A stretch of 64,000 bases of DNA from Bacillota bacterium (GTDB lineage: Bacteria; Bacillota; Dehalobacteriia; UBA4068; UBA4997): assembly GCA_021769035.1 (NCBI GenBank), contig JAETTP010000002.1:7189-71188 (forward strand), written 5' to 3'. The translations under genes and the position numbers were made by a program. Shown here piece by piece: positions 6,972-57,488 of this stretch (positions are counted from its first letter, which is position 1; every line of letters starts with the position of its first letter). The notes beneath the pieces are model-generated. The model searched no databases. It was not told where the DNA came from and worked only from the letters and a program-made list of their open reading frames with translations.

Positions 6972-8651
6972 TCACCGCAGCTTCCGCCCCGCCTCAATCA
7001 GCTCCTCCGCCTGGCGTTTGGTGGTGGCCGTCACCTTGTCGCCGGCCAACATTCGGCTGATCTCCTGCACCTTGGCCTCGCCGGCCAGCTCCTGCACGCC
7101 CGTCACCGTGCGGCCGTCCTGCTCGCGCTTCTCCACCAGCAGATTATTGTCCGCGTAGGCCGCCAGCACCGGCGCGTGCGTCACGCAAATGGCCTGCGTT
7201 TCCTGCGCCACCTGCACCAGCTTTTCCGCCACGCTGCCCAGGGCCCGGCCGCCCAAACCGGTGTCAATCTCATCAAAAATCAGGGTGGGCACCTCGTCAA
7301 GACTAGCCAAAATCACCTTAATTGCCAACATAATACGCGACATTTCGCCGCCGGAGGCAATCCGGGCCACCGGCTTCAACTCCTCGCCAGGGTTGGGGCT
7401 AATCATAAACTGCACCTCGTCGCAACCGTCCGCCGCCGGGGCCTTGGTCGGCAAGGCCACCGCAAATTTGGCTTTGGTCATCTGCAAATATTTCAGCTCA
7501 GCGCCAATCCGGGCCGCCAACTCCTGGCCGGCCGCCTCGCGCAGACTGTGCATCTGACCGGCCGCCTGCTGATAGTCAGCCGCCAGCTTGGCCTCGCGGC
7601 TGGCTAAATCCGCCAGATACTCCTCCCGATTCTCCCGCCGCTCCAGCTCCTGCTGATTAGCCGCCAAAATTTGCAGCAAACGGGCTTCGTCGGCATTATA
7701 TTTTTTACAAAGCGCTTTCAGAGCAAACTGCCTGGCGTTAATCTCCTCCAGACGCGCCGGGTCGTCCACAATATTCTCCCGATAATCGCGCAGCTCCAGC
7801 GCGGCGTCCTCCAACTCGTAGTACAGGCTTTGCATACGCTCCTGCAAAGGAGCCACCGCCTCGTCAAAGCGTTGCAGCTCCTCCAGCTCCCGCACCACGC
7901 CGTCCAAAGCCGCCAGCACCGCGCCATTGCCGGCGTAAAGCGCACTGTAGGCCCGGTTAGCACGCTCACTGCGCCGCTGCACGCTTTCCAGCCCGGCCGC
8001 CTCCTTGGCCAGCTCCTCCGCCTCGCCGGGGCGCAGCTTGGCCGCCGTCAGCTCCTCAATCTGAAACTGCAAAAAACGCCGCCGCTCCGCGTCATCAGCG
8101 TCCTCCTGCTGGGCCTGGGCCAGCTCCCGCGCCGTCTGCTGCCAAGCCTGATAAGCTGCCGCCACCTGCCGCCGCTGCTCGGCCACCGCCTCGCCGCCAA
8201 AGCTATCCAGCAAATGCAGCTGTTTATCCGGCTCCAGCAGGCTCACGTGCTCGCTCTGGCCGTGAATATTAATCAACAGCCGCCCCACGGATTTCAGCGC
8301 CGTCAGCGGCACCGGCTGCATATTAATCCGGCAGGAAGAACGCCCGGCCGCCTGCACCTCCCGGCTGAGAATCAGATCCTCCTCCGGGTCAATCTCCAGG
8401 CCCAGCTCGGCCAACGTTTGCTGCAAGCCGGCAGAAAAGGGCGGCGCAAACACGCCCTGCACCCGCAGCTTGTCCGCGCCCCAACGCACCTGCTCGCGCC
8501 CGGCCCGGCTGCCCAGCAGCAGAGAAACCGCGTCTAACAGCATTGATTTGCCCGCACCAGTTTCGCCAGAAAGCACATTAAGCCCCGGCTGCCACAGCAG
8601 CACAGCCTTTTCAATCAAAGCCAAATTTTCAATATAAAGCTCCGCAAACAT
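6972..8651 (-). CDS. recN: DNA repair protein RecN
   Basis: 559 aa with Walker A GETGAGKS near the N-terminus, long coiled-coil middle and an SMC-like C-terminus. Confidence 0.9.
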   Translation of the reverse strand: MFAELYIENLALIEKAVLLWQPGLNVLSGETGAGKSMLLDAVSLLLGSRAGREQVRWGADKLRVQGVFAPPFSAGLQQTLAELGLEIDPEEDLILSREVQAAGRSSCRINMQPVPLTALKSVGRLLINIHGQSEHVSLLEPDKQLHLLDSFGGEAVAEQRRQVAAAYQAWQQTARELAQAQQEDADDAERRRFLQFQIEELTAAKLRPGEAEELAKEAAGLESVQRRSERANRAYSALYAGNGAVLAALDGVVRELEELQRFDEAVAPLQERMQSLYYELEDAALELRDYRENIVDDPARLEEINARQFALKALCKKYNADEARLLQILAANQQELERRENREEYLADLASREAKLAADYQQAAGQMHSLREAAGQELAARIGAELKYLQMTKAKFAVALPTKAPAADGCDEVQFMISPNPGEELKPVARIASGGEMSRIMLAIKVILASLDEVPTLIFDEIDTGLGGRALGSVAEKLVQVAQETQAICVTHAPVLAAYADNNLLVEKREQDGRTVTGVQELAGEAKVQEISRMLAGDKVTATTKRQAEELIEAGRKLR

Positions 8652-51478: not shown

Positions 51479-51623
51479 GATAACAAACACAAAATATACG
51501 CATTTTTGTCGGGCAAACCACTATAACTAGTTGTCAGCAGCAGTTAAACGGCCATCTGGCCTGCTCCAGCGGCAACCGGCTGGGTTGTTTCGGCAAAATA
51601 TGACTCAGGAGGAAAATCTTTCC

Positions 51624-53981
51624 ATGTTTGACAGTATTATCAAGCGCGACGGGCGCCGCGTGCCTTATGACATCAGCAAAATCACCGACGCAATCCGCAA
51701 GGCGATGGAAGCCAGCGGGCGCGACGCCGCCGGGCAGGAATGCGAGCGTTTGGCCGCCCTGGTGGAGGACAAGCTGAACGCCACCTTTAAGGGCGAGGCC
51801 CCAGGCATTGAGGATATTCAGGATATGGTGGAAACCGTGCTGATGGAAAACGGTTACGCCCTGGTAGCCCGCAAATACATTATTTACCGTAGCGAGCGCA
51901 CCCGCAGCCGCGAGATGAACACCCGACTGATGCGCATTTACGACGAGCTGACCAACACGGATTCTCTGCTGTCAGACATGAAGCGCGACAACGCTAATAT
52001 CGACGGCGACACCGCCATGGGCACAATGCTGAAATACGGCAGCGAGGGCGCTAAGGATTACTACGAAAAATATGTGCTCTCGCCGGCCCAAAGCAAGGCC
52101 CACGCCGAGGGCGACATTCATATCCACGATTTCGATTTTTACACCCTGACGACCACCTGCTGCCAGATTAATCTGCTGGATCTTTTCAAAGACGGTTTTT
52201 CCACCGGGCACGGTTTTCTGCGGGAACCCAACGACATCTCCAGCTACACTGCGCTGGCCTGCATTGCCATTCAGTCCAACCAAAACGACCAGCACGGCGG
52301 CCAAAGCGTGCCCAACTTCGATTATTGTATGGCGCCGGGCGTGGCCAAAACTTTCAAAAAGCTGTATATCAGCAATTTTTTCAAGGCGGCGGAACTGCTT
52401 TGGCCGCAGTATCCGCTCTCGCAGGACCAGACCAAGGCTGTTTTTGAGCAGCTGGCCGCCGAGCAGCCGGAGCTTATGCCCCGCATTGCTTTAAGCGAGC
52501 AGTTTGAACCCGCCTTGCAGGAGGCGCTGCAAACGGCCATTGCCGAGCCTGATAAACAGCTGCCGGCGGAGGTTTTTGCCCACTGCGCCCGCTTTGCCTA
52601 CGACACCGCCCTGGCGGAAACGGACAAGCACACCTTTCAGGCTATGGAGGCGCTGGTGCACAATCTGAACACTATGCACAGCCGGGCCGGCGCACAAACC
52701 CCGTTTTCCTCCATCAACTACGGAACGGACACCTCGCCGGAGGGACGCATGGCCAGCAAAAATATTCTGCTGGCGACGGAGGCCGGCCTGGGCCAGGGCG
52801 AAACGCCGATTTTCCCTATTCACATCTTCAAGGTGAAAGCCGGCGTCAGCTTCAACCCGGAGGACCCCAACTACGACCTTTTCAAGCTGGCCTGCCGGGT
52901 CAGCGCCAAGCGGCTGTTCCCCAACTTTTCTTTCATCGACGCGCCGTTTAACCTGCAATATTACAAGCCAGGCCACCCGGAAACGGAGGTTTCCTATATG
53001 GGCTGCCGCACCCGCGTGCTGGGCAACCACTACAACCCGCAGCAGGAAATCACCTACGGCCGCGGCAACCTGAGCTTCACCTCAATCAACCTGCCCCGTA
53101 TTGCGATTAAGGCCAACCACAATCTGGAGCTTTTCTTCGACGATTTGGAGCGCAAAATGGATTTGGTAGCCAACCAGCTGCTGGACCGCTTCAAAATCCA
53201 ATCCCACAAAAAAGTGCGCAACTTCCCCTTTTTGATGGGCCAGGGCGTTTGGATTGGCTCCAAGGATTTGGATATTGACGACGAGGTGGGCGAGGTGCTG
53301 AAAAACGGCACCCTATCCATCGGCTTTATTGGCCTGGCGGAAACGCTGGTGGCCCTCACCGGCAAGCACCATGGCGAGTGCGTGGAATCCCGCAACCTGG
53401 GCCAGGAAATCGTCAGCTTTATGCGCGAATACTGCGACCGCAAAAGCGAGGAAACCGGCCTGAACTTCACCCTGCTGGCTACTCCGGCCGAGGGCCTCTC
53501 CGGCCGCTTTGTCCGCATTGATAAGAAGAAATTCGGCATTATCCCCGGCGTCACCGACCGCGATTACTACACCAACAGCTTCCACGTGCCGGTTTACTAC
53601 CCCATCAGCGCCTATGAAAAGCTGAAGATTGAAGCGCCCTATCACGCGCTGACCAACGCCGGCCACATCTCTTATGTGGAGCTGGACGGCGACACCGCTA
53701 AAAATATTGAAGCGTTTGAGCAAATCGTCCGTTATATGCAGCAAGTCGGCATCGGCTACGGCTCTATCAACCACCCGGTTGACCGCGACCCGGTTTGCGG
53801 CTACAGCGGCATTATCAACGAGGTTTGCCCGCGCTGCGGCCGCCACGAGGGCGAGGGCGTCAGCCTGAGCAAGCTGCGAGCGATTAAGGCCACCGTGCGC
53901 GGCAATACGGAAACCTGCGGCTACTGCGGCGACCCTAACGAAGAAAACGAACGTCAGGCCAACCCCAACAAGCTGGGCTGA
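51624..53981 (+). CDS. nrdD: anaerobic ribonucleoside-triphosphate reductase (class III), large polypeptide ending after the zinc ribbon
   Basis: AGGAGG RBS then ATG 51624. ATP-cone N-terminus (MFDSIIKRDGRRVPYD). C-terminal Cys cluster CPRCG..CGYCG. No C-terminal RxxGY glycyl-radical motif in this ORF. Confidence 0.85.
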   Translation: MFDSIIKRDGRRVPYDISKITDAIRKAMEASGRDAAGQECERLAALVEDKLNATFKGEAPGIEDIQDMVETVLMENGYALVARKYIIYRSERTRSREMNTRLMRIYDELTNTDSLLSDMKRDNANIDGDTAMGTMLKYGSEGAKDYYEKYVLSPAQSKAHAEGDIHIHDFDFYTLTTTCCQINLLDLFKDGFSTGHGFLREPNDISSYTALACIAIQSNQNDQHGGQSVPNFDYCMAPGVAKTFKKLYISNFFKAAELLWPQYPLSQDQTKAVFEQLAAEQPELMPRIALSEQFEPALQEALQTAIAEPDKQLPAEVFAHCARFAYDTALAETDKHTFQAMEALVHNLNTMHSRAGAQTPFSSINYGTDTSPEGRMASKNILLATEAGLGQGETPIFPIHIFKVKAGVSFNPEDPNYDLFKLACRVSAKRLFPNFSFIDAPFNLQYYKPGHPETEVSYMGCRTRVLGNHYNPQQEITYGRGNLSFTSINLPRIAIKANHNLELFFDDLERKMDLVANQLLDRFKIQSHKKVRNFPFLMGQGVWIGSKDLDIDDEVGEVLKNGTLSIGFIGLAETLVALTGKHHGECVESRNLGQEIVSFMREYCDRKSEETGLNFTLLATPAEGLSGRFVRIDKKKFGIIPGVTDRDYYTNSFHVPVYYPISAYEKLKIEAPYHALTNAGHISYVELDGDTAKNIEAFEQIVRYMQQVGIGYGSINHPVDRDPVCGYSGIINEVCPRCGRHEGEGVSLSKLRAIKATVRGNTETCGYCGDPNEENERQANPNKLG

Positions 53982-54018: not shown

Positions 54019-54186
54019 ATGACTAACAATAAAAACACTAATCCGCAAAATGATGTTATGGTGGGCGAGGGCGTAGGCTTTGAGCGTATCCGCCGGATCA
54101 CCGGCTATCTTGTAGGCACCCTGGACCGTTTCAACAACGCCAAACGCGCCGAGGAAAAGGACCGCGTGAAGCACAATGTCGGCTAA
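54019..54186 (+). CDS. 55-aa protein carrying the NrdD-type glycyl-radical motif (RRITGYLVG ... FNNAKRAEEKDRVKH)
   Basis: AAAGGAG RBS then ATG 54019. The sequence resembles the extreme C-terminus of E. coli NrdD (RRVCGYLG...FNAGKQEEVKRRVKH). It overlaps the nrdG start by 11 nt. Confidence 0.5.
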   Translation: MTNNKNTNPQNDVMVGEGVGFERIRRITGYLVGTLDRFNNAKRAEEKDRVKHNVG

Positions 54187-54718
54187 TTGCCCAACCCAAA
54201 CAACACCGCGGACAATCCAGCTGGCCGGCGTCGTCAATGATTCTATCACCGACGGCCCAGGCATTCGGCTGACGGTGTTTGTGCAAGGCTGCCCGCACCA
54301 TTGCCCCGGCTGCCACAATCAGCAGACCTGGGATTTTGCCGGCGGCCAGCCAACCACAACCGAGGAGCTTTGGCAGCAAATTCAGCAAAACCCGCTGCTT
54401 TCCGGCGTTACTTTCAGCGGCGGCGAGCCTATGGCCCAGGCCGCGGCCCTGTTGCCGCTGGCCCAACGGATTAAGCAGGCCGGGCTGGAGCTGGCTATTT
54501 ACTCCGGCTACACATTTGAGCAGTTGCTGAACCTGCCCGACCCTGCCGTCCGCCAGCTGCTTGAACTGGCCGACACATTGATTGACGGGCCTTTCATTTT
54601 GGCTCAGCGCAATTTGGAGCTGAACTTCCGCGGCTCTGAGAACCAACGGATTCTTAAAGCGGCCGCCTCGTTAAAAGAGGGCCGTCCGGTTTTAGAAGAA
54701 GCTGAACGCTGGCATTAA
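54176..54718 (+). CDS. nrdG: anaerobic ribonucleoside-triphosphate reductase activating protein
   Basis: Radical-SAM cluster motif CPHHCPGCHN and GGEP. Confidence 0.85.
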   Translation: MSANCPTQTTPRTIQLAGVVNDSITDGPGIRLTVFVQGCPHHCPGCHNQQTWDFAGGQPTTTEELWQQIQQNPLLSGVTFSGGEPMAQAAALLPLAQRIKQAGLELAIYSGYTFEQLLNLPDPAVRQLLELADTLIDGPFILAQRNLELNFRGSENQRILKAAASLKEGRPVLEEAERWH

Positions 54719-54722
54719 ATGC

Positions 54723-54849
54723 TTGACAAAAGGGCGGAAAGTATTGTATAATAAATAAAGAAAGAGCCGGCCTCAAATGGGGTCAGCCCTCAATAGTTAG
54801 CTACAAAAATAGCCGTAACCTTTTGGAAGTTGGAGGCGGCTATTTTTTT
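54723..54849 (+). ncRNA. small transcription unit 1: consensus promoter (TTGACA-18-TATAAT) + ~90-nt transcript + intrinsic terminator
   Basis: -35 at 54723-54728, -10 at 54747-54752. Terminator ATAGCCG..CGGCTAT + T7 at 54809-54849. No credible ORF. Paralogous copy at 56694-56815. Confidence 0.45.
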
Positions 54850-54866
54850 GTGTGAACACTTAGCGA
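54849..54866. repeat. 18-nt exact repeat TGTGTGAACACTTAGCGA, copy 2
   Basis: Identical to the reverse complement of 29887-29904. It lies immediately after a terminator T-run. Confidence 0.6.
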
Positions 54867-55290
54867 CTGGCAAGGCCAAAGGCCGCAGACAGAGCTTAGT
54901 GTGAACCACCCCTGAGCGAAGCGAATGGGGTATGTCTTATTGCAAAGTCCGCAACTGTTATTAACAGTATAAGTAATGCGGATACTTCTAAAAAAGTCAT
55001 ACAACCACCCCCTCTCGTCTTGCAAGAATAAGAGAGGGCTACTAAACCCTCTCCCACTCCTTACGTATGCGATAGTGTGCTGAGGGCCAACCGCCAATTA
55101 AAACCAAACTCTTTCTTGACGATATTATATCACTTTGAATACCAAATAGCAACATTTTTTTACATTATACGCACAAAGGTGACTAGCCAAATTCGGCAGT
55201 CACCTTTTTTGTATCACTTTTACAACCACCTTATTTATCATTATGCGCTAAACTAATGGTGCAAATAATGATACAAAGGTGGTTTTAGCA

Positions 55291-55542
55291 ATGCCCAAAC
55301 CTAGCACATCAGACGGTAAAAAAAATTTAATCCAAGAACGCTTAAAGCAGCTGCGAGATGAGCGCGACTTATCGCAACGAGATTTAGCCCATCTGCTACA
55401 ACTGGCTGGCTATGATATGGATAAAAACGTTATAACTCGTATTGAAACCAACAAACGCTTTGTTTCCGATATTGAGCTAAAAGCGTTGGCCGAAATTTTT
55501 CAAGTCAGTTATGCCTGGCTGCTGGACGGCGAGGAAAAATAA
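55291..55542 (+). CDS. XRE-family HTH regulator, paralog 1 (83 aa)
   Basis: AAAGGTGG RBS then ATG 55291. Near-identical to the 56069-56320 product. Confidence 0.65.
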   Translation: MPKPSTSDGKKNLIQERLKQLRDERDLSQRDLAHLLQLAGYDMDKNVITRIETNKRFVSDIELKALAEIFQVSYAWLLDGEEK

Positions 55543-55799
55543 ACACCGTAATCATACATTTTCAATGCTAAATGTTTACTAATAGCAAACATATTAGTAA
55601 TAATCTCCTCCAAATCCTTATCCGTTTGCACCCCTAAGCGATTACACAAACGCTGATTGGCACTGAAAATTTTTTCATAGGCAGTATCGCAAAAACTGCC
55701 AGCAACAAATTCATTTTGAACAACCCCTCCATAATTTAAATAAAATCTCTCTTCATCAATTTCTCCTGTCATAGTGCTATAAAGTAGTTCCCTGTTCAT
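55509..55799 (-). CDS. hypothetical protein (96 aa), convergent with and overlapping the 3' end of XRE paralog 1
   Basis: AAGGAAG RBS then ATG 55799 (MNRELLYSTMTGEIDEERFY...). The promoter region contains the shared TTGTA-N7-TACAA box. Confidence 0.3.
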   Translation of the reverse strand: MNRELLYSTMTGEIDEERFYLNYGGVVQNEFVAGSFCDTAYEKIFSANQRLCNRLGVQTDKDLEEIITNMFAISKHLALKMYDYGVYFSSPSSSQA

Positions 55800-56068
55800 T
55801 TTACATCTTCCTTTCGTCAATTTATTGTATCACTTTTACAACCGATTATACACTTTATTATAGCCTAAAGCAATACTTGCAAAACACAATCGTTCTCTTT
55901 TTTTCACCATATTATTATTAAATTCGACTTTAATATAAATAATATACCTAAATTATTCTGTAGATTTTCTATATTGGAAAATATTTTTGTATCACTTTTA
56001 CAACCAACTGATTTATCATTATGCGCTAAACTAATGGTGCGAATAATGATACAAAGGCGGTTTTAGCT

Positions 56069-56320
56069 ATGCCCAAACCTAGCACATCAGACGGTAAAAA
56101 GAATTTAATCCAAAAACGCTTAAAACAACTACGAGATGAGCACGATTTATCGCAGCGAGATTTAGCCCACCTGCTGCAACTGGCTGGCTATGATATGGAT
56201 AAAAACGTTATAACCCGTATTGAAACCAACAACCGCTTTGTTTCTGATATTGAAATAAAAGCGTTGGCCGAAATTTTTCAAGTCAGTTATGCCTGGCTGC
56301 TGGACGGCGAAGAAAAATAA
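56069..56320 (+). CDS. XRE-family HTH regulator, paralog 2 (83 aa)
   Basis: Differs from paralog 1 by a handful of substitutions. The upstream ~90 bp is also duplicated. Confidence 0.65.
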   Translation: MPKPSTSDGKKNLIQKRLKQLRDEHDLSQRDLAHLLQLAGYDMDKNVITRIETNNRFVSDIEIKALAEIFQVSYAWLLDGEEK

Positions 56321-56414
56321 ATAGGGAAAAGCCGCTTCCGATTGGCGGCTTTTCCCTATTTTACTTGCTATTCTCGTTGCAATAGTATATAATAAAGGCA
56401 AAGGAGTGGATATA

Positions 56415-56684
56415 ATGGCCAACGTAAATATCAGAGTGGATGAGAACTTAAAAAATCAAGCCGATGTTATTTTTGCTGATTTGGGTATAGATTGTACAGT
56501 TGCCACTAATATTTTTTTGAAACAGGTTGTGCGCCACAACGGCCTGCCTTTTGAAATGCGTATCGACCCTTTTTACTCATCAGAAAACCAAAAACGTCTA
56601 TTAATCGCCAAGGAACGAATGGTTAATGGCGGCGGTACTCCACACGAATTAATAGAGTACGATGATTATAATACAAATAACTAA
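56415..56684 (+). CDS. RelB/DinJ-family type II antitoxin-like protein, no adjacent toxin gene
   Basis: AAAGGAG RBS then ATG 56415. MANVNIRVDENLKNQADVIFADLGIDCTVATNIFLKQVVRHNGLPFEM resembles DinJ. Confidence 0.6.
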   Translation: MANVNIRVDENLKNQADVIFADLGIDCTVATNIFLKQVVRHNGLPFEMRIDPFYSSENQKRLLIAKERMVNGGGTPHELIEYDDYNTNN

Positions 56685-56693
56685 CATATCACT

Positions 56694-56815
56694 TGACAAA
56701 ACACTGCAAACGTTATATAATAAACAAAAAAGAGCTGGCCTCAAATGGGGTCAGCCCTCATATTAGACTAAAAAATAGCCGTAACCTTTGGTGCAGGAGG
56801 CGGCTATTTCTTTAT
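56694..56815 (+). ncRNA. small transcription unit 2: consensus promoter (TTGACA-17-TATAAT) + ~90-nt transcript + terminator
   Basis: -35 at 56694-56699, -10 at 56717-56722. Shares the core AGAGCYGGCCTCAAATGGGGTCAGCCCTCA and the terminator ATAGCCGTAACC...GGAGGCGGCTATTT with unit 1. Confidence 0.45.
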
Positions 56816-56828
56816 ATTTAATTGACTT

Positions 56829-57005
56829 TTAGGCACTTTTTTCTGTTTGCAACTGCTTAATCTCGTCTATAGCCAAACCGGATATATTGGCTATTTCATC
56901 TAAAGTATATTTACCTGCTGACAACATACGACAAGCAACCTCGCGTTTTTCTTCCTGTCTTTCCTGAGCCAGCATTTCCTCTATTGTTCTACACACAATT
57001 GTCAC
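56829..57005 (-). pseudogene. remnant resembling the C-terminal (DUF4351-like) tail of an Rpn/YhgA-family PD-(D/E)XK nuclease
   Basis: 58-codon frame ...QERQEEKREVACRMLSAGKYTLDEIANISGLAIDEIKQLQ, bounded upstream by an in-frame TAG. No nuclease core present. Confidence 0.35.
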
Positions 57006-57023
57006 CCACCCCTATATTTTAAC

Positions 57024-57488
57024 TCAATCCTTAGGGGCGGCCTCCATCATTTTATGTATCTCCTGAATAAAAGTTTCAACGTCCTCAAACTTGCGATAAA
57101 CCGAAGCAAAACGCACGTAAGCCACATCGTCCACAGCGCGCAGGCGTTCCATAACCATATCGCCAATGCGCATAGCGGGCACCTCCCGCTCCATAGAGCC
57201 TTTCAGTTCCTTTTCAACGTCCAGCACAAGCTGCTCCAGCACAGCCACCGGCACCGGGCGTTTGTCGCAGGCGCGCACCAATCCGGCCAAAATTTTGTTC
57301 TTATCAAAAATTTCCCGGTTGCCATCGCGCTTCACCACCAGCAGGCTGGTTTCCTCTTCCCGCTCGTAGGTTGTAAACCTTTTTCCACAGCTGAGGCACT
57401 CACGCCGCCGCCGAATACTGCGCCCATCTTCCACCGGGCGGGAATCCAACACCTTTGAGTCAGGATAACCACAAAATGAACAACGCAT
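57024..57488 (-). CDS. nrdR: transcriptional repressor NrdR
   Basis: Zinc ribbon CSFCG..CLSCG plus an ATP-cone. Confidence 0.9.
   Translation of the reverse strand: MRCSFCGYPDSKVLDSRPVEDGRSIRRRRECLSCGKRFTTYEREEETSLLVVKRDGNREIFDKNKILAGLVRACDKRPVPVAVLEQLVLDVEKELKGSMEREVPAMRIGDMVMERLRAVDDVAYVRFASVYRKFEDVETFIQEIHKMMEAAPKD

Follow-up and report, generated by a model that had tools for sequence, protein, structure and literature searches.

A candidate type I toxin-antitoxin-like module with a par-like layout in a small set of related, uncultured bacteria

Type I toxins are small (<60 aa) and hydrophobic, with a potential transmembrane segment and charged C-terminal residues (PMC6563280). In the par system, the promoters of the toxin and antitoxin genes converge on a shared bidirectional terminator, which is also the site at which pairing of the two RNAs starts, and a structure in the toxin mRNA sequesters its Shine-Dalgarno sequence (PMC7472228). 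In bsrG/SR4 of Bacillus subtilis and CD2517.1/RCd8 of Clostridioides difficile, the toxin is likewise a small hydrophobic peptide with a charged C-terminus, and the antitoxin is convergent and overlaps it at the 3' end; systems of this type are thought to act by causing decay of the mRNA, by altering the structure around the ribosome-binding site, or both (PMC6563280). The toxins of different families of this type show no sequence similarity to one another.

Here we describe a locus in the gap between nrdG and nrdR that shares much of this organization. It lies in the window, i.e., the whole 64-kb stretch of DNA that was analysed, and contains two short transcription units, one of which faces the gene for a small hydrophobic peptide. 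On balance, we consider it probable that unit and peptide gene together are a new type I toxin-antitoxin-like module, with the layout of par from plasmid pAD1. The module is seen only in a few related uncultured bacteria, and all of the evidence is drawn from a small number of uncultured lineages that are closely related. The features of the two units are as follows.

54723 to 54752, plus strand: promoter of unit 1, with the -35 hexamer TTGACA at 54723-54728, an 18-nt spacer and the -10 hexamer TATAAT at 54747-54752 (a 12/12 match).
54759 to 54849, plus strand: predicted small RNA of unit 1, ~90 nt, with its start placed 7 nt past the -10 hexamer and its end at the T-run.
54763 to 54790, plus strand: hairpin 1 of unit 1, with the stem GCCGGCCUC / GGGGUCAGC and the loop AAAU.
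54804 to 54849, both strands: bidirectional terminator of the unit 1 RNA and the peptide mRNA (A-run, ATAGCCG...CGGCTAT, T-run).
56693 to 56721, plus strand: promoter of unit 2 (TTGACA, 17 nt, TATAAT; a 12/12 match).
56728 to 56813, plus strand: predicted small RNA of unit 2, ~86 nt, with hairpin 1 at 56731-56758 and a bidirectional terminator at 56770-56813.
56829 to 57005, minus strand: ORF55/58, the convergent partner of unit 2, just downstream of nrdR and on the same strand as nrdR.

Two paralogous units of ~90 nt had been proposed at 54723-54849 and 56694-56815, each with a textbook promoter, and both were found, at 54723-54849 and 56693-56813 on the plus strand. No other 12/12 promoter match occurs in 54600-57100. 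The two units are ~85% identical. The core that they share, GGCCTCAAATGGGGTCAGCCCTCA, occurs exactly twice in the 64 kb, where none is expected (100 shuffles), as part of a longer common core, AAGAGCYGGCC...CCCTCA. The terminator halves AAAAATAGCCGTAACCTTT / GGAGGCGGCTATTT are also common to both. The promoter spacer and the terminator loop differ, as had been stated, and so does the linker. Each copy folds into a 5' hairpin and a terminator hairpin, with energies of -28.4 and -31.9 kcal/mol (z = -2.0 and -3.5). Hairpin 1 of unit 1 includes two G.U pairs, one C.A mismatch and outer AG/CU pairs, and its 3' tail, CCCUCA, resembles an anti-Shine-Dalgarno sequence. A simple terminator scanner reported nothing at the units, because the terminator loop is longer than its limit, but the hairpin and T-run are plain in the sequence. 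The intrinsic terminator of the original prediction is present and is bidirectional, since an A-run precedes the hairpin and a T-run follows it.

The units had been read as sRNA genes of no named family, and this reading stands: each is a small transcription unit on its own, followed by no gene on its strand, and both are most likely genes for non-coding RNAs. In Rfam, the whole window gave no family at the gathering score, and a search of 54500-57100 at E <= 10 gave sub-threshold matches only. The best of these was ctRNA_pT181 (RF00242), which is also an antisense RNA of ~90 nt with a 5' hairpin and a CUUUGG-containing loop in its terminator hairpin. However, the match scored 32.9 bits (E = 0.052) against a gathering score of 56 and concerned unit 2 only, unit 1 giving none, and the locus has neither a replication gene nor a plasmid context.

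The order of promoter, structured leader and terminator is also that of an attenuator, and a unit might be conceived as a cis-regulatory leader or riboswitch. Similarly, it might encode a tiny peptide, for the short ORFs noted earlier are indeed present (MGSALNS and MGSALILD, each from an AUG in the hairpin loop), and such an ORF of 7-8 codons is kept in all variants. Yet both units run into minus-strand genes, and the leader reading was rejected because no gene lies downstream; nor is there a match to any Rfam riboswitch or leader. As for the ORFs, their AUG lies inside a hairpin and has no proper Shine-Dalgarno sequence, the copies diverge after MGSAL, and stop codons are in any case frequent in the AT-rich linker. 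We give these two possibilities almost no credence.

Conservation among the relatives is concentrated in particular parts of the units. In the -35 and -10 hexamers, the hairpin core and the terminator stems, 58/63 columns are invariant, versus 25/63 in the spacer, leader, linker and loop (Fisher p = 4e-10). This contrast indicates that the units are under patterned purifying selection. The promoter hexamers are invariant in six variants with four different spacers, and a fifth spacer is found in L098-L106. Within hairpin 1, 26/30 columns are invariant. As to the proposed check for compensatory changes, both copies fold, but no covariation was found in either hairpin of the small RNA, and two stem positions are mismatched in some variants (C.A, A.C).

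The original prediction had allowed that the units might be att-like duplications bracketing an insert, i.e., recombination repeats that end a mobile island. They are direct repeats near both ends of the low-GC nrdG-nrdR gap, a unit or its remnant stands at both ends of the gap in a sister lineage too, and assemblies break inside the core. Nonetheless, no integrase, transposase or other recombinase is present, the identity of the copies is well short of complete, and their conservation follows promoter, hairpin and terminator. In addition, the small genes of the gap vary even in lineages without units, one of which carries a homologue of ORF96 (a by-eye similarity, from the L095 sequence), while the right-hand copy in the sister lineage is a decayed remnant. 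A blastn search with unit 1 of plasmid and phage collections yielded nothing meaningful. Near-identical bordering repeats with a recombinase, as would mark att sites or the ends of an IS, MITE or prophage, were not found, and we rejected these candidates; the island reading is, in our assessment, very improbable.

The other suggestion, that the units are sRNA regulators of the XRE/RelB block between them, finds no support, for the gene upstream of unit 2 can be exchanged: the window has RelB there, and L023 has another gene, for a 101-aa XRE. The constant partner of the intact unit next to nrdG is instead a convergent gene for a small peptide. This minus-strand gene beside unit 1 had been overlooked. 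For genome scans, the lesson is that, where two orphan promoter-hairpin-terminator units form a pair, a very short ORF should be looked for on the opposite strand. The features of the peptide gene are these.

54850 to 54932, minus strand: segment of ~83 nt found only in the 'long-form' peptide gene, encoding the C-terminus TPFASLRGGSH and the stop.
54896 to 55000, minus strand: ORF for a small hydrophobic peptide, the candidate type I toxin (ATG at 55000, stop at 54896), 34 aa: MTFLEVSALLILLITVADFAIRHTPFASLRGGSH.
55001 to 55117, minus strand: leader of the peptide mRNA, for which an RNAalifold consensus was computed from 5 sequences.
55124 to 55152, minus strand: promoter of the peptide gene (TTGCTA, 17 nt, TG-n-TATAAT; 10/12 with an extended -10).

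In the relatives the peptide reads MTFLEVSALLILLITVADFAI(R/K)H(S/C)N(K/R)K, and its length ranges from 27 to 34 residues. The ~83-nt segment is missing from L086, L090 unit A and L091, where the ORF ends in RHSNKK and its stop codon lies inside the A-run of the terminator. Residues 2-21 have a mean Kyte-Doolittle hydropathy of 2.1, and the tail is rich in K and R (R/K-H-x-N-K/R-K). The peptide thus answers to the description of type I toxins in size, hydropathy and charged tail (PMC6563280). Between the window and L090 the codons differ by 6 synonymous and 0 non-synonymous changes, and between the window and L091 by 8 synonymous and 1 non-synonymous, with 8/9 at third positions. The pattern indicates that this is a real coding gene under coding constraint. 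Its promoter hexamers are kept in L090 and L091 with a different spacer.

Searches of Pfam, NCBIfam (both with cut-offs of E <= 1-10) and PHROGs, and tblastn on plasmids, assigned the peptide to no family and to no known toxin family, and its sole relative among 1.84 billion representative proteins is a 27-aa copy. Unlike members of the Fst/Ldr superfamily, it has neither the PXXXG(C) motif nor the conserved W. That the peptide is an Fst toxin was ruled out by the lack of both the motif and a family match.

Unit and peptide gene are linked across lineages. An intact unit and an intact peptide gene stand together after nrdG in the window lineage, L086, L090 and L091-L093. By lineage, the two co-occur in that of the window and in a sister lineage (88% NrdG identity). 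A third lineage (94% NrdG identity) has the unit, and its contigs break before any position at which the peptide gene could lie. In lineages with 85% and 78% NrdG identity, both the unit and the peptide gene are absent. Decay is also seen: in L091, a unit with a mutated -35 and no terminator lies beside a truncated peptide gene, and a second decayed unit (TTAACA/TATAAG, no terminator) stands alone next to nrdR. The locus offers, within one genomic gap, a natural series of intact modules, decayed modules and empty sites. Unlike bsrG/SR4, CD2517.1/RCd8 and their relatives, it is neither in a prophage nor beside a CRISPR array.

These observations bear on the possibility that the units are stand-alone small RNAs, trans-acting or protein-binding, with targets elsewhere, and that they lie beside the peptide gene only through co-inheritance of the block. 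A sequence-specific target or a protein partner would fit with hairpin 1 being invariant in sequence and not co-varying, and the C-rich CCCUCA and GCCUCA could bind Shine-Dalgarno sequences in general. Unit 2, moreover, is intact without an adjoining peptide gene. Yet lineages without the peptide gene are also without the unit, and the two decayed copies are found where the peptide gene is truncated or missing. A target scan of the 64 kb brought out no outstanding candidate, the top non-self duplexes being in GC-rich coding DNA. The RNA is also narrowly distributed, which is unusual for a housekeeping regulator. The exact 18-mer core gave 12 matches in GTDB representative genomes, all of them by chance in unrelated taxa, and the core itself was found in 0 of 185,579 species-representative genomes. 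It had 0 matches in IMG/VR viral contigs, and a scan of JGI metagenome contigs with CCTCAAATGGGGN5CCCTCA returned 34 matches, all in unrelated coding sequences. We regard this explanation as unlikely.

The case for the module includes the convergent promoters (12/12 for the unit, 10/12 plus TG for the peptide gene) around a single terminator of A-run, hairpin and T-run. This is the arrangement of par in Enterococcus faecalis pAD1, with its Fst mRNA (RNA I) and antitoxin (RNA II), and of par-like loci in Firmicutes, where convergent promoters likewise share a bidirectional intrinsic terminator. As in par, a short antitoxin RNA would be opposed to a longer mRNA, of ~230 nt, for a membrane peptide of ~30 aa. 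With respect to type I systems in general, the locus offers a convergent small RNA gene with its own 12/12 promoter and 45 nt of perfect complementarity, both transcripts being predicted.

That complementarity is confined to the terminator. Because one bidirectional terminator would end both transcripts, the last ~45 nt of each are perfectly complementary to those of the other, and this is the only fully complementary stretch of the unit 1 RNA and the peptide mRNA; in the short-form module it spans the last three codons and the stop codon. It is also the only certain complementarity on the sequence, and one expected of any convergent pair with a common terminator. The overlap is shorter than the long complementary regions of bsrG/SR4 and CD2517.1/RCd8. 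Par has a second complementarity, of the DRa/DRb type, to the translation initiation region; here, no such pairing rises above chance. In RNAduplex scans of both strands, the best window of the small RNA 5' domain with the peptide mRNA ranks 2307 of 12,792, and with the translation initiation region this domain pairs no better than shuffled RNAs do (p = 0.12-0.7), so a par-like second site was rejected. In the apical region of the terminator, a YUNR-like UUGG is invariant in all six variants amid variable surroundings. It is on the small RNA strand, whereas the U-turn motif of par is on the toxin RNA, and it is partly paired in some predicted folds.

RNA folding models predict that the leader of the peptide mRNA sequesters the Shine-Dalgarno sequence of that mRNA together with the first codons; a toxin mRNA structure that hides the Shine-Dalgarno sequence is again a feature of par. 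The 5' end of the leader, AAGAAAGAG (55117-55109), is predicted to pair with codons 2-4, and GCGGUUGGCCCUC (around 55080-55092) with the Shine-Dalgarno region GAGAGGGGGUGG (55005-55016). In the consensus fold, GCGGUUAGCCCUC pairs with GAGAGGGGGUGAUUGC, and AAGAAAGAGUU with codons 2-4. Over the 5 sequences, 210/210 cells are paired in RNAalifold and 6 one-sided changes keep pairing; there are no double compensatory changes.

The first ~36 nt of the small RNA are homologous, in the same sense, to this leader, and the stretch of hairpin 1 in unit 1 to the first ~37 nt of the peptide mRNA. The alignment scores 30-48, and 0/2000 shuffles reached the observed score (shuffle maxima 27-31). In this respect the locus differs from par: the 5' domain of its small RNA repeats the toxin leader in the same sense.

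The homology could also mean that the units are by-products with a functionless RNA. In that case promoter and leader of the peptide gene would have been duplicated in inverted orientation and joined to the terminator, and the result would be kept, if at all, as a strong convergent promoter with a double terminator that insulates the genes nearby. Read on the minus strand, hairpin 1 has a U-rich run after it and might serve as a back-up terminator, and two stem variants, U-to-C at 54768 and G-to-A in L090 unit B, fit pairing on the minus strand and not on the plus strand. On the other hand, the C-to-U change in L090 unit A preserves plus-strand pairing only, and the two G.U pairs in hairpin 1 favour a plus-strand RNA fold. 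In addition, the 12/12 promoter match is kept in six variants despite their differing spacers and lost in the copies that are clearly decaying. We think it improbable that the units are such by-products.

For the toxin-antitoxin-like module, we propose the following mechanism. Each unit would be the gene for a small non-coding RNA of ~90 nt under a very strong constitutive promoter, and the native unit would belong to a compact, two-part module of ~370-450 bp. Its counterpart there would be the convergent mRNA of ~230-310 nt, which encodes the hydrophobic peptide of 27-34 residues with its basic C-terminus. This mRNA may silence itself by pairing of its 5' leader with its own Shine-Dalgarno sequence and first codons. 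The abundant small RNA would anneal to the terminator hairpin at the 3' end of the peptide mRNA, perhaps with a first contact at the conserved apical UUGG, and this pairing would either mark the mRNA for cleavage and decay or lock it in an inert fold. The 5' domain of the small RNA (hairpin 1 and CCCUCA) probably arose by inverted duplication of the peptide leader; it most likely protects the RNA as a 5' hairpin, with an anti-Shine-Dalgarno contact as a possible further role. The analysis shows how the sequence is built, that unit and peptide gene are linked across lineages, that the peptide is under coding constraint and that the leader is homologous to the small RNA; from this we infer the transcripts, the RNA-RNA pairing in vivo, the toxicity of the peptide and the direction of regulation.

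A more speculative extension, which we hold to be doubtful, is that the antitoxin RNA is a trans-acting mimic of the self-silencing toxin leader from whose inverted duplication it derives. After docking at the terminator, AAGAAAGAG and (C/U)AGCCCUCA of the small RNA might replace or reinforce the cis leader on the first codons and the Shine-Dalgarno sequence. Such mimicry would become important if, for instance, the toxin mRNA were processed at its 5' end, and would explain why any copy of the unit, unit 2 included, could protect against any copy of the toxin. To our knowledge, an origin of type I antitoxins by duplication or mimicry of the toxin leader has not been described.

If confirmed, the module would represent a new family of type I toxin-antitoxin systems in which neither toxin nor RNA has homologues in known families. 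Its hosts are uncultured, spore-forming, Clostridia-like bacteria, in which type I systems easily escape notice, since annotation misses both partners. The evolutionary link of the antisense RNA to the leader of its target mRNA bears on the origin of RNA antitoxins.

Besides the absence of covariation, of pairing above chance outside the terminator and of a match to known toxin families, it counts against the module that unit 2, although fully intact, faces an ORF that is not hydrophobic. In our proposal, unit 1 would be the partner of the peptide gene. Unit 2, its paralogue, would now oppose the nrdR-ORF55 transcript and could have kept its ability to act in trans on the peptide mRNA. ORF55/58 is similar to the C-terminus of Rpn-family proteins, with matches to the end of TIGR01784 (model positions 226-273 of 273, E = 0.0056) and of the phrog_3300 transposase (positions 270-312 of 313, E = 1.4e-4). 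Searches for homologues of ORF55 and ORF96 found almost nothing outside the same lineage. One homologue of ORF55, 82% identical and in another genomic context, retains the same terminator.

Both elements lie exactly where the original prediction placed them, and each carries the promoter described there, namely TTGACA and TATAAT separated by a 17- or 18-nt spacer; nothing else in the region matches the promoter consensus at 12/12. Two copies of the 24-nt core GGCCTCAAATGGGGTCAGCCCTCA are present in the 64 kb, where none is expected. Alignment of the two units shows that the promoter hexamers, the core and the terminator stems are identical, and that the spacer, the linker and the terminator loop have diverged. 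In keeping with the predicted intrinsic terminators, the fold of each copy consists of a 5' hairpin and, after it, the hairpin of the terminator; hairpin 1 has the predicted stem GCYGGCCUC / GGGGUCAGC and an AAAU loop. Because the terminator has an A-run on its 5' side and a T-run on its 3' side, it would be able to stop transcription from either direction. The earlier statement that the motif was not recognised as any named RNA family agrees with a search of the entire window against Rfam 15, which gave no match at gathering score; the best sub-threshold match, for unit 2 only, was the plasmid countertranscript ctRNA_pT181 (32.9 bits vs 56 required). The module belongs to no Rfam family.

The units are located in a low-GC gap, with nrdD-nrdG (plus strand) on one side and nrdR (minus strand) on the other.

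Features of the nrdG-nrdR gap, in order
54723-54849, plus strand: unit 1
55152-55124, minus strand: peptide-gene promoter (TTGCTA, 17 nt, TGnTATAAT); the transcript has a short ORF (ATG 55000, stop 54896) with a long Shine-Dalgarno sequence in front
Third to fifth: XRE gene, 96-aa ORF (minus strand), second XRE gene
56415-56684, plus strand: RelB/DinJ-family antitoxin gene without a toxin partner, i.e., with no RelE/YafQ-type toxin gene after it
56693-56813, plus strand: unit 2, starting 9 nt past the RelB/DinJ stop codon
56829-57005, minus strand: 55-58-aa ORF (ORF55), directly 3' of nrdR

No same-strand gene lies downstream of unit 1 or unit 2. Both run head-on into minus-strand genes, each sharing its terminator with the opposing gene, and we regard it as extremely improbable that the units are cis-leaders or micro-ORFs.

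Opposite unit 1, the window peptide reads MTFLEVSALLILLITVADFAIRHTPFASLRGGSH. Diverged copies were reached in public assemblies, both of the window lineage and of related ones, by exact-protein look-ups (NrdG, NrdR, RelB and homologues). In assembly sequences L086, L090 and L091-L093 the peptide is MTFLEVSALLILLITVADFAI(R/K)H(S/C)NKK, with the stop codon within the terminator A-run, and in the window ~83 extra nt (54850-54932) lead to a different C-terminus. That is, an indel between terminator and ORF produces two forms, one ending in RHSNKK (the 27-aa short form) and the other in RHTPFASLRGGSH (the long form). The ~83-nt segment, found also at L090 1488-1571 and L091 7138-7180, has small hairpins of its own (GGCC-AAA-GGCC and CCCC...GGGG), and AATGGGGT within it repeats 8 nt of hairpin 1 in direct orientation. 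Judged by its sequence, the opposite-strand ORF is a real gene. All six codon differences between the window and L090 are synonymous; relative to L091 there are eight synonymous and one conservative difference, 8/9 at the third position. Strong hydrophobicity and a basic tail give the peptide the features by which type I toxins are described (PMC6563280). Family searches (Pfam, NCBIfam, PHROGs) and tblastn against plasmids gave no match, and the one relative recovered from 1.84 billion representative proteins was the peptide's own 27-aa variant. The core, likewise, was not found in 185,579 species-representative genomes, in JGI metagenome and IMG/VR viral contigs, or in plasmid and phage collections; the assemblies that carry it come from Logan, ENA and JGI and represent only a few close lineages. 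This candidate family is narrow, had no earlier annotation and falls within a well-known kind of system; its single unusual trait is that the antitoxin RNA is homologous to the toxin leader.

In a sister lineage (NrdG 88% identical; labelled Peptococcaceae MAG by one source), an intact unit lies after nrdG, together with a convergent peptide gene. A third lineage (NrdG 94%) also has a unit after nrdG, with a further distinct promoter spacer; all nine of its contigs end inside the core, as expected of a repeated sequence, so that the view stops short of the peptide-gene site. In lineages whose NrdG is 85% or 78% identical, unit and peptide gene are both lacking, and nrdG has just an ordinary terminator after it. 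L090 carries two intact units, the second followed by the segment that forms the window's long-form 3' end; the contig ends before a second peptide gene could come into view. In L091 the second module is wrecked: the RelB gene is internally deleted, the unit has a mutated -35 and no terminator, and the long-form peptide gene is truncated. At the place of the window's unit 2, ~40 nt from nrdR, the sister lineage has a decayed unit (TTAACA/TATAAG, no terminator). Thus, where the flank is readable, the nrdG-adjacent unit accompanies an intact peptide gene, and at the two decayed units the gene is either disrupted or lacking. Unit 2 of the window departs from this: it is intact and has no adjoining peptide gene.

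Among six distinct intact variants, 58/63 columns are invariant in the -35, -10, hairpin core and terminator stems, vs 25/63 in the spacer, 5' leader, linker and terminator loop (Fisher p = 4e-10, with segment borders partly set after the alignment was seen). With this pattern in hand, the proposal that the units are att-like repeats appears very improbable. All variants share the predicted two-hairpin shape. No compensatory double changes occur among them in the small-RNA stems; one pair is G-C, G.U or A.C, and another U-A or C.A. Constraint on the unit is therefore, as far as the alignment indicates, mainly at the sequence level; what backs the predicted structure is thermodynamics and two G.U pairs favouring the plus strand. 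Many antisense RNAs use a YUNR motif. The otherwise variable apical part of the terminator contains an invariant UUGG, which fits YUNR, is carried on the small RNA, and is partly paired in some predicted folds.

Over its first ~36 nt the small RNA shows same-sense homology to the start of the peptide mRNA (~37 nt), the shared elements being AAGAAAGAG ... GG(U)(C/U)AGCCCUCA. Local alignment scores were 30-48, and 0/2000 dinucleotide shuffles per pair attained the observed score (maxima 27-31). The module DNA is therefore bounded by an inverted repeat of transcribed 5' ends. The units might then be functionless by-products, or insulators, left by an inverted duplication, which we consider quite unlikely in view of the 12/12 promoter that six variants retain despite differing spacers. 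Within the peptide mRNA, the predicted partners of these two leader elements are the first codons (ACUUUUUU) and the Shine-Dalgarno region (GAGAGGGGGUGAUUGC). The consensus leader structure is paired in all 210 of its cells, and all six substitutions keep pairing; the support is modest, because the structure was derived from those same few sequences. The leader may thus sequester its own Shine-Dalgarno region and first codons. Type I toxin mRNAs, par RNA I among them, typically have primary transcripts that are self-silenced (PMC7472228).

Pairing between the small-RNA 5' domain and the peptide mRNA was not detectably above chance. In a target scan of both window strands the best peptide-mRNA window ranks 2307 of 12,792; duplexes with the translation initiation region were no better than those of shuffled RNAs (p = 0.12-0.7), and opening hairpin 1 uses up most of the duplex gain. 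The sequence-level constraint on hairpin 1 and the solitary unit 2 would suit trans-acting or protein-binding small RNAs with no connection to the peptide, a reading we hold to be unlikely given the joint occurrence of unit and peptide gene. The sole firm complementarity between the two RNAs is the shared terminator (~45 nt), which in the short-form module spans the last three codons and the stop codon. We favour, with somewhat better than even confidence, a type I toxin-antitoxin-like module of par-like layout. On this view, the small antisense RNA would be strongly expressed and the mRNA for a small membrane peptide self-silenced, and the two would meet at a common terminator and pair by means of it; the small-RNA 5' domain would be a duplicated toxin leader, evolved into a stable 5' hairpin, and unit 2 a paralogous copy now sharing its terminator with the nrdR-ORF55 transcript. 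Like par RNA I, the peptide mRNA is predicted to be self-silenced, but membership of the Fst/par family was rejected because the toxin motifs and DRa/DRb repeats are absent, the latter judged from 5'-domain pairing no better than chance. In its probable mode of action the module resembles such systems.

The similarity of ORF55 to Rpn-family nuclease/transposase-like proteins is confined to their extreme C-terminus (TIGR01784, positions 226-273 of 273, E = 0.0056; phrog_3300, E = 1.4e-4). Small proteins produced from this C-terminal region in E. coli act as antitoxins against the long Rpn nucleases (PMC10400941). ORF55 stands alone. An 82%-identical copy in another genomic context (L043 736-1002) retains the same unit-type terminator downstream.

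A duplication (55206-55505 and 55984-56283; 300 nt, 93% identical) comprises the XRE gene together with the sequence upstream of it. The 21-nt motif TTGTATCACTTTTACAACC occurs four times (55125-55145, 55209-55229, 55825-55845, 55987-56007); a degenerate copy among them extends over the -10 region of the peptide-gene promoter, which makes the XRE protein a possible repressor of the peptide gene. In the sister lineage's peptide promoter the motif is not kept, and that lineage has an internally deleted remnant of the RelB/DinJ-family gene (L091 ~6999-7045). In L023 (3383-4001, opposite orientation), a strain variant with a far shorter gap, the peptide-gene promoter leads straight into a different XRE gene of 101 aa, with unit 2 behind it; the central part of the gap is thus exchanged between strains, and the end modules are retained. 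A second bidirectional terminator, AAAGGTGACTAGCCAAATTCGGCAGTCACCTTTTTT (55177-55212), lies between the peptide-gene promoter and the first XRE gene. Its close copy is a plain terminator 3' of nrdG in a unit-less lineage (L095 ~1678-1718), so it may be the ancestral end of the nrdDG operon. Between nrdD (51531-53981) and nrdG (54176-54718), a separate 55-aa ORF (54019-54186, plus strand) has an NRDD Pfam match and the glycyl-radical-like motif RRITGYLVG. It therefore appears that the anaerobic ribonucleotide reductase has its C-terminal radical domain encoded separately from the main protein of 785-816 aa. This split is kept in all related lineages fetched (L033, L091, L094, L095).
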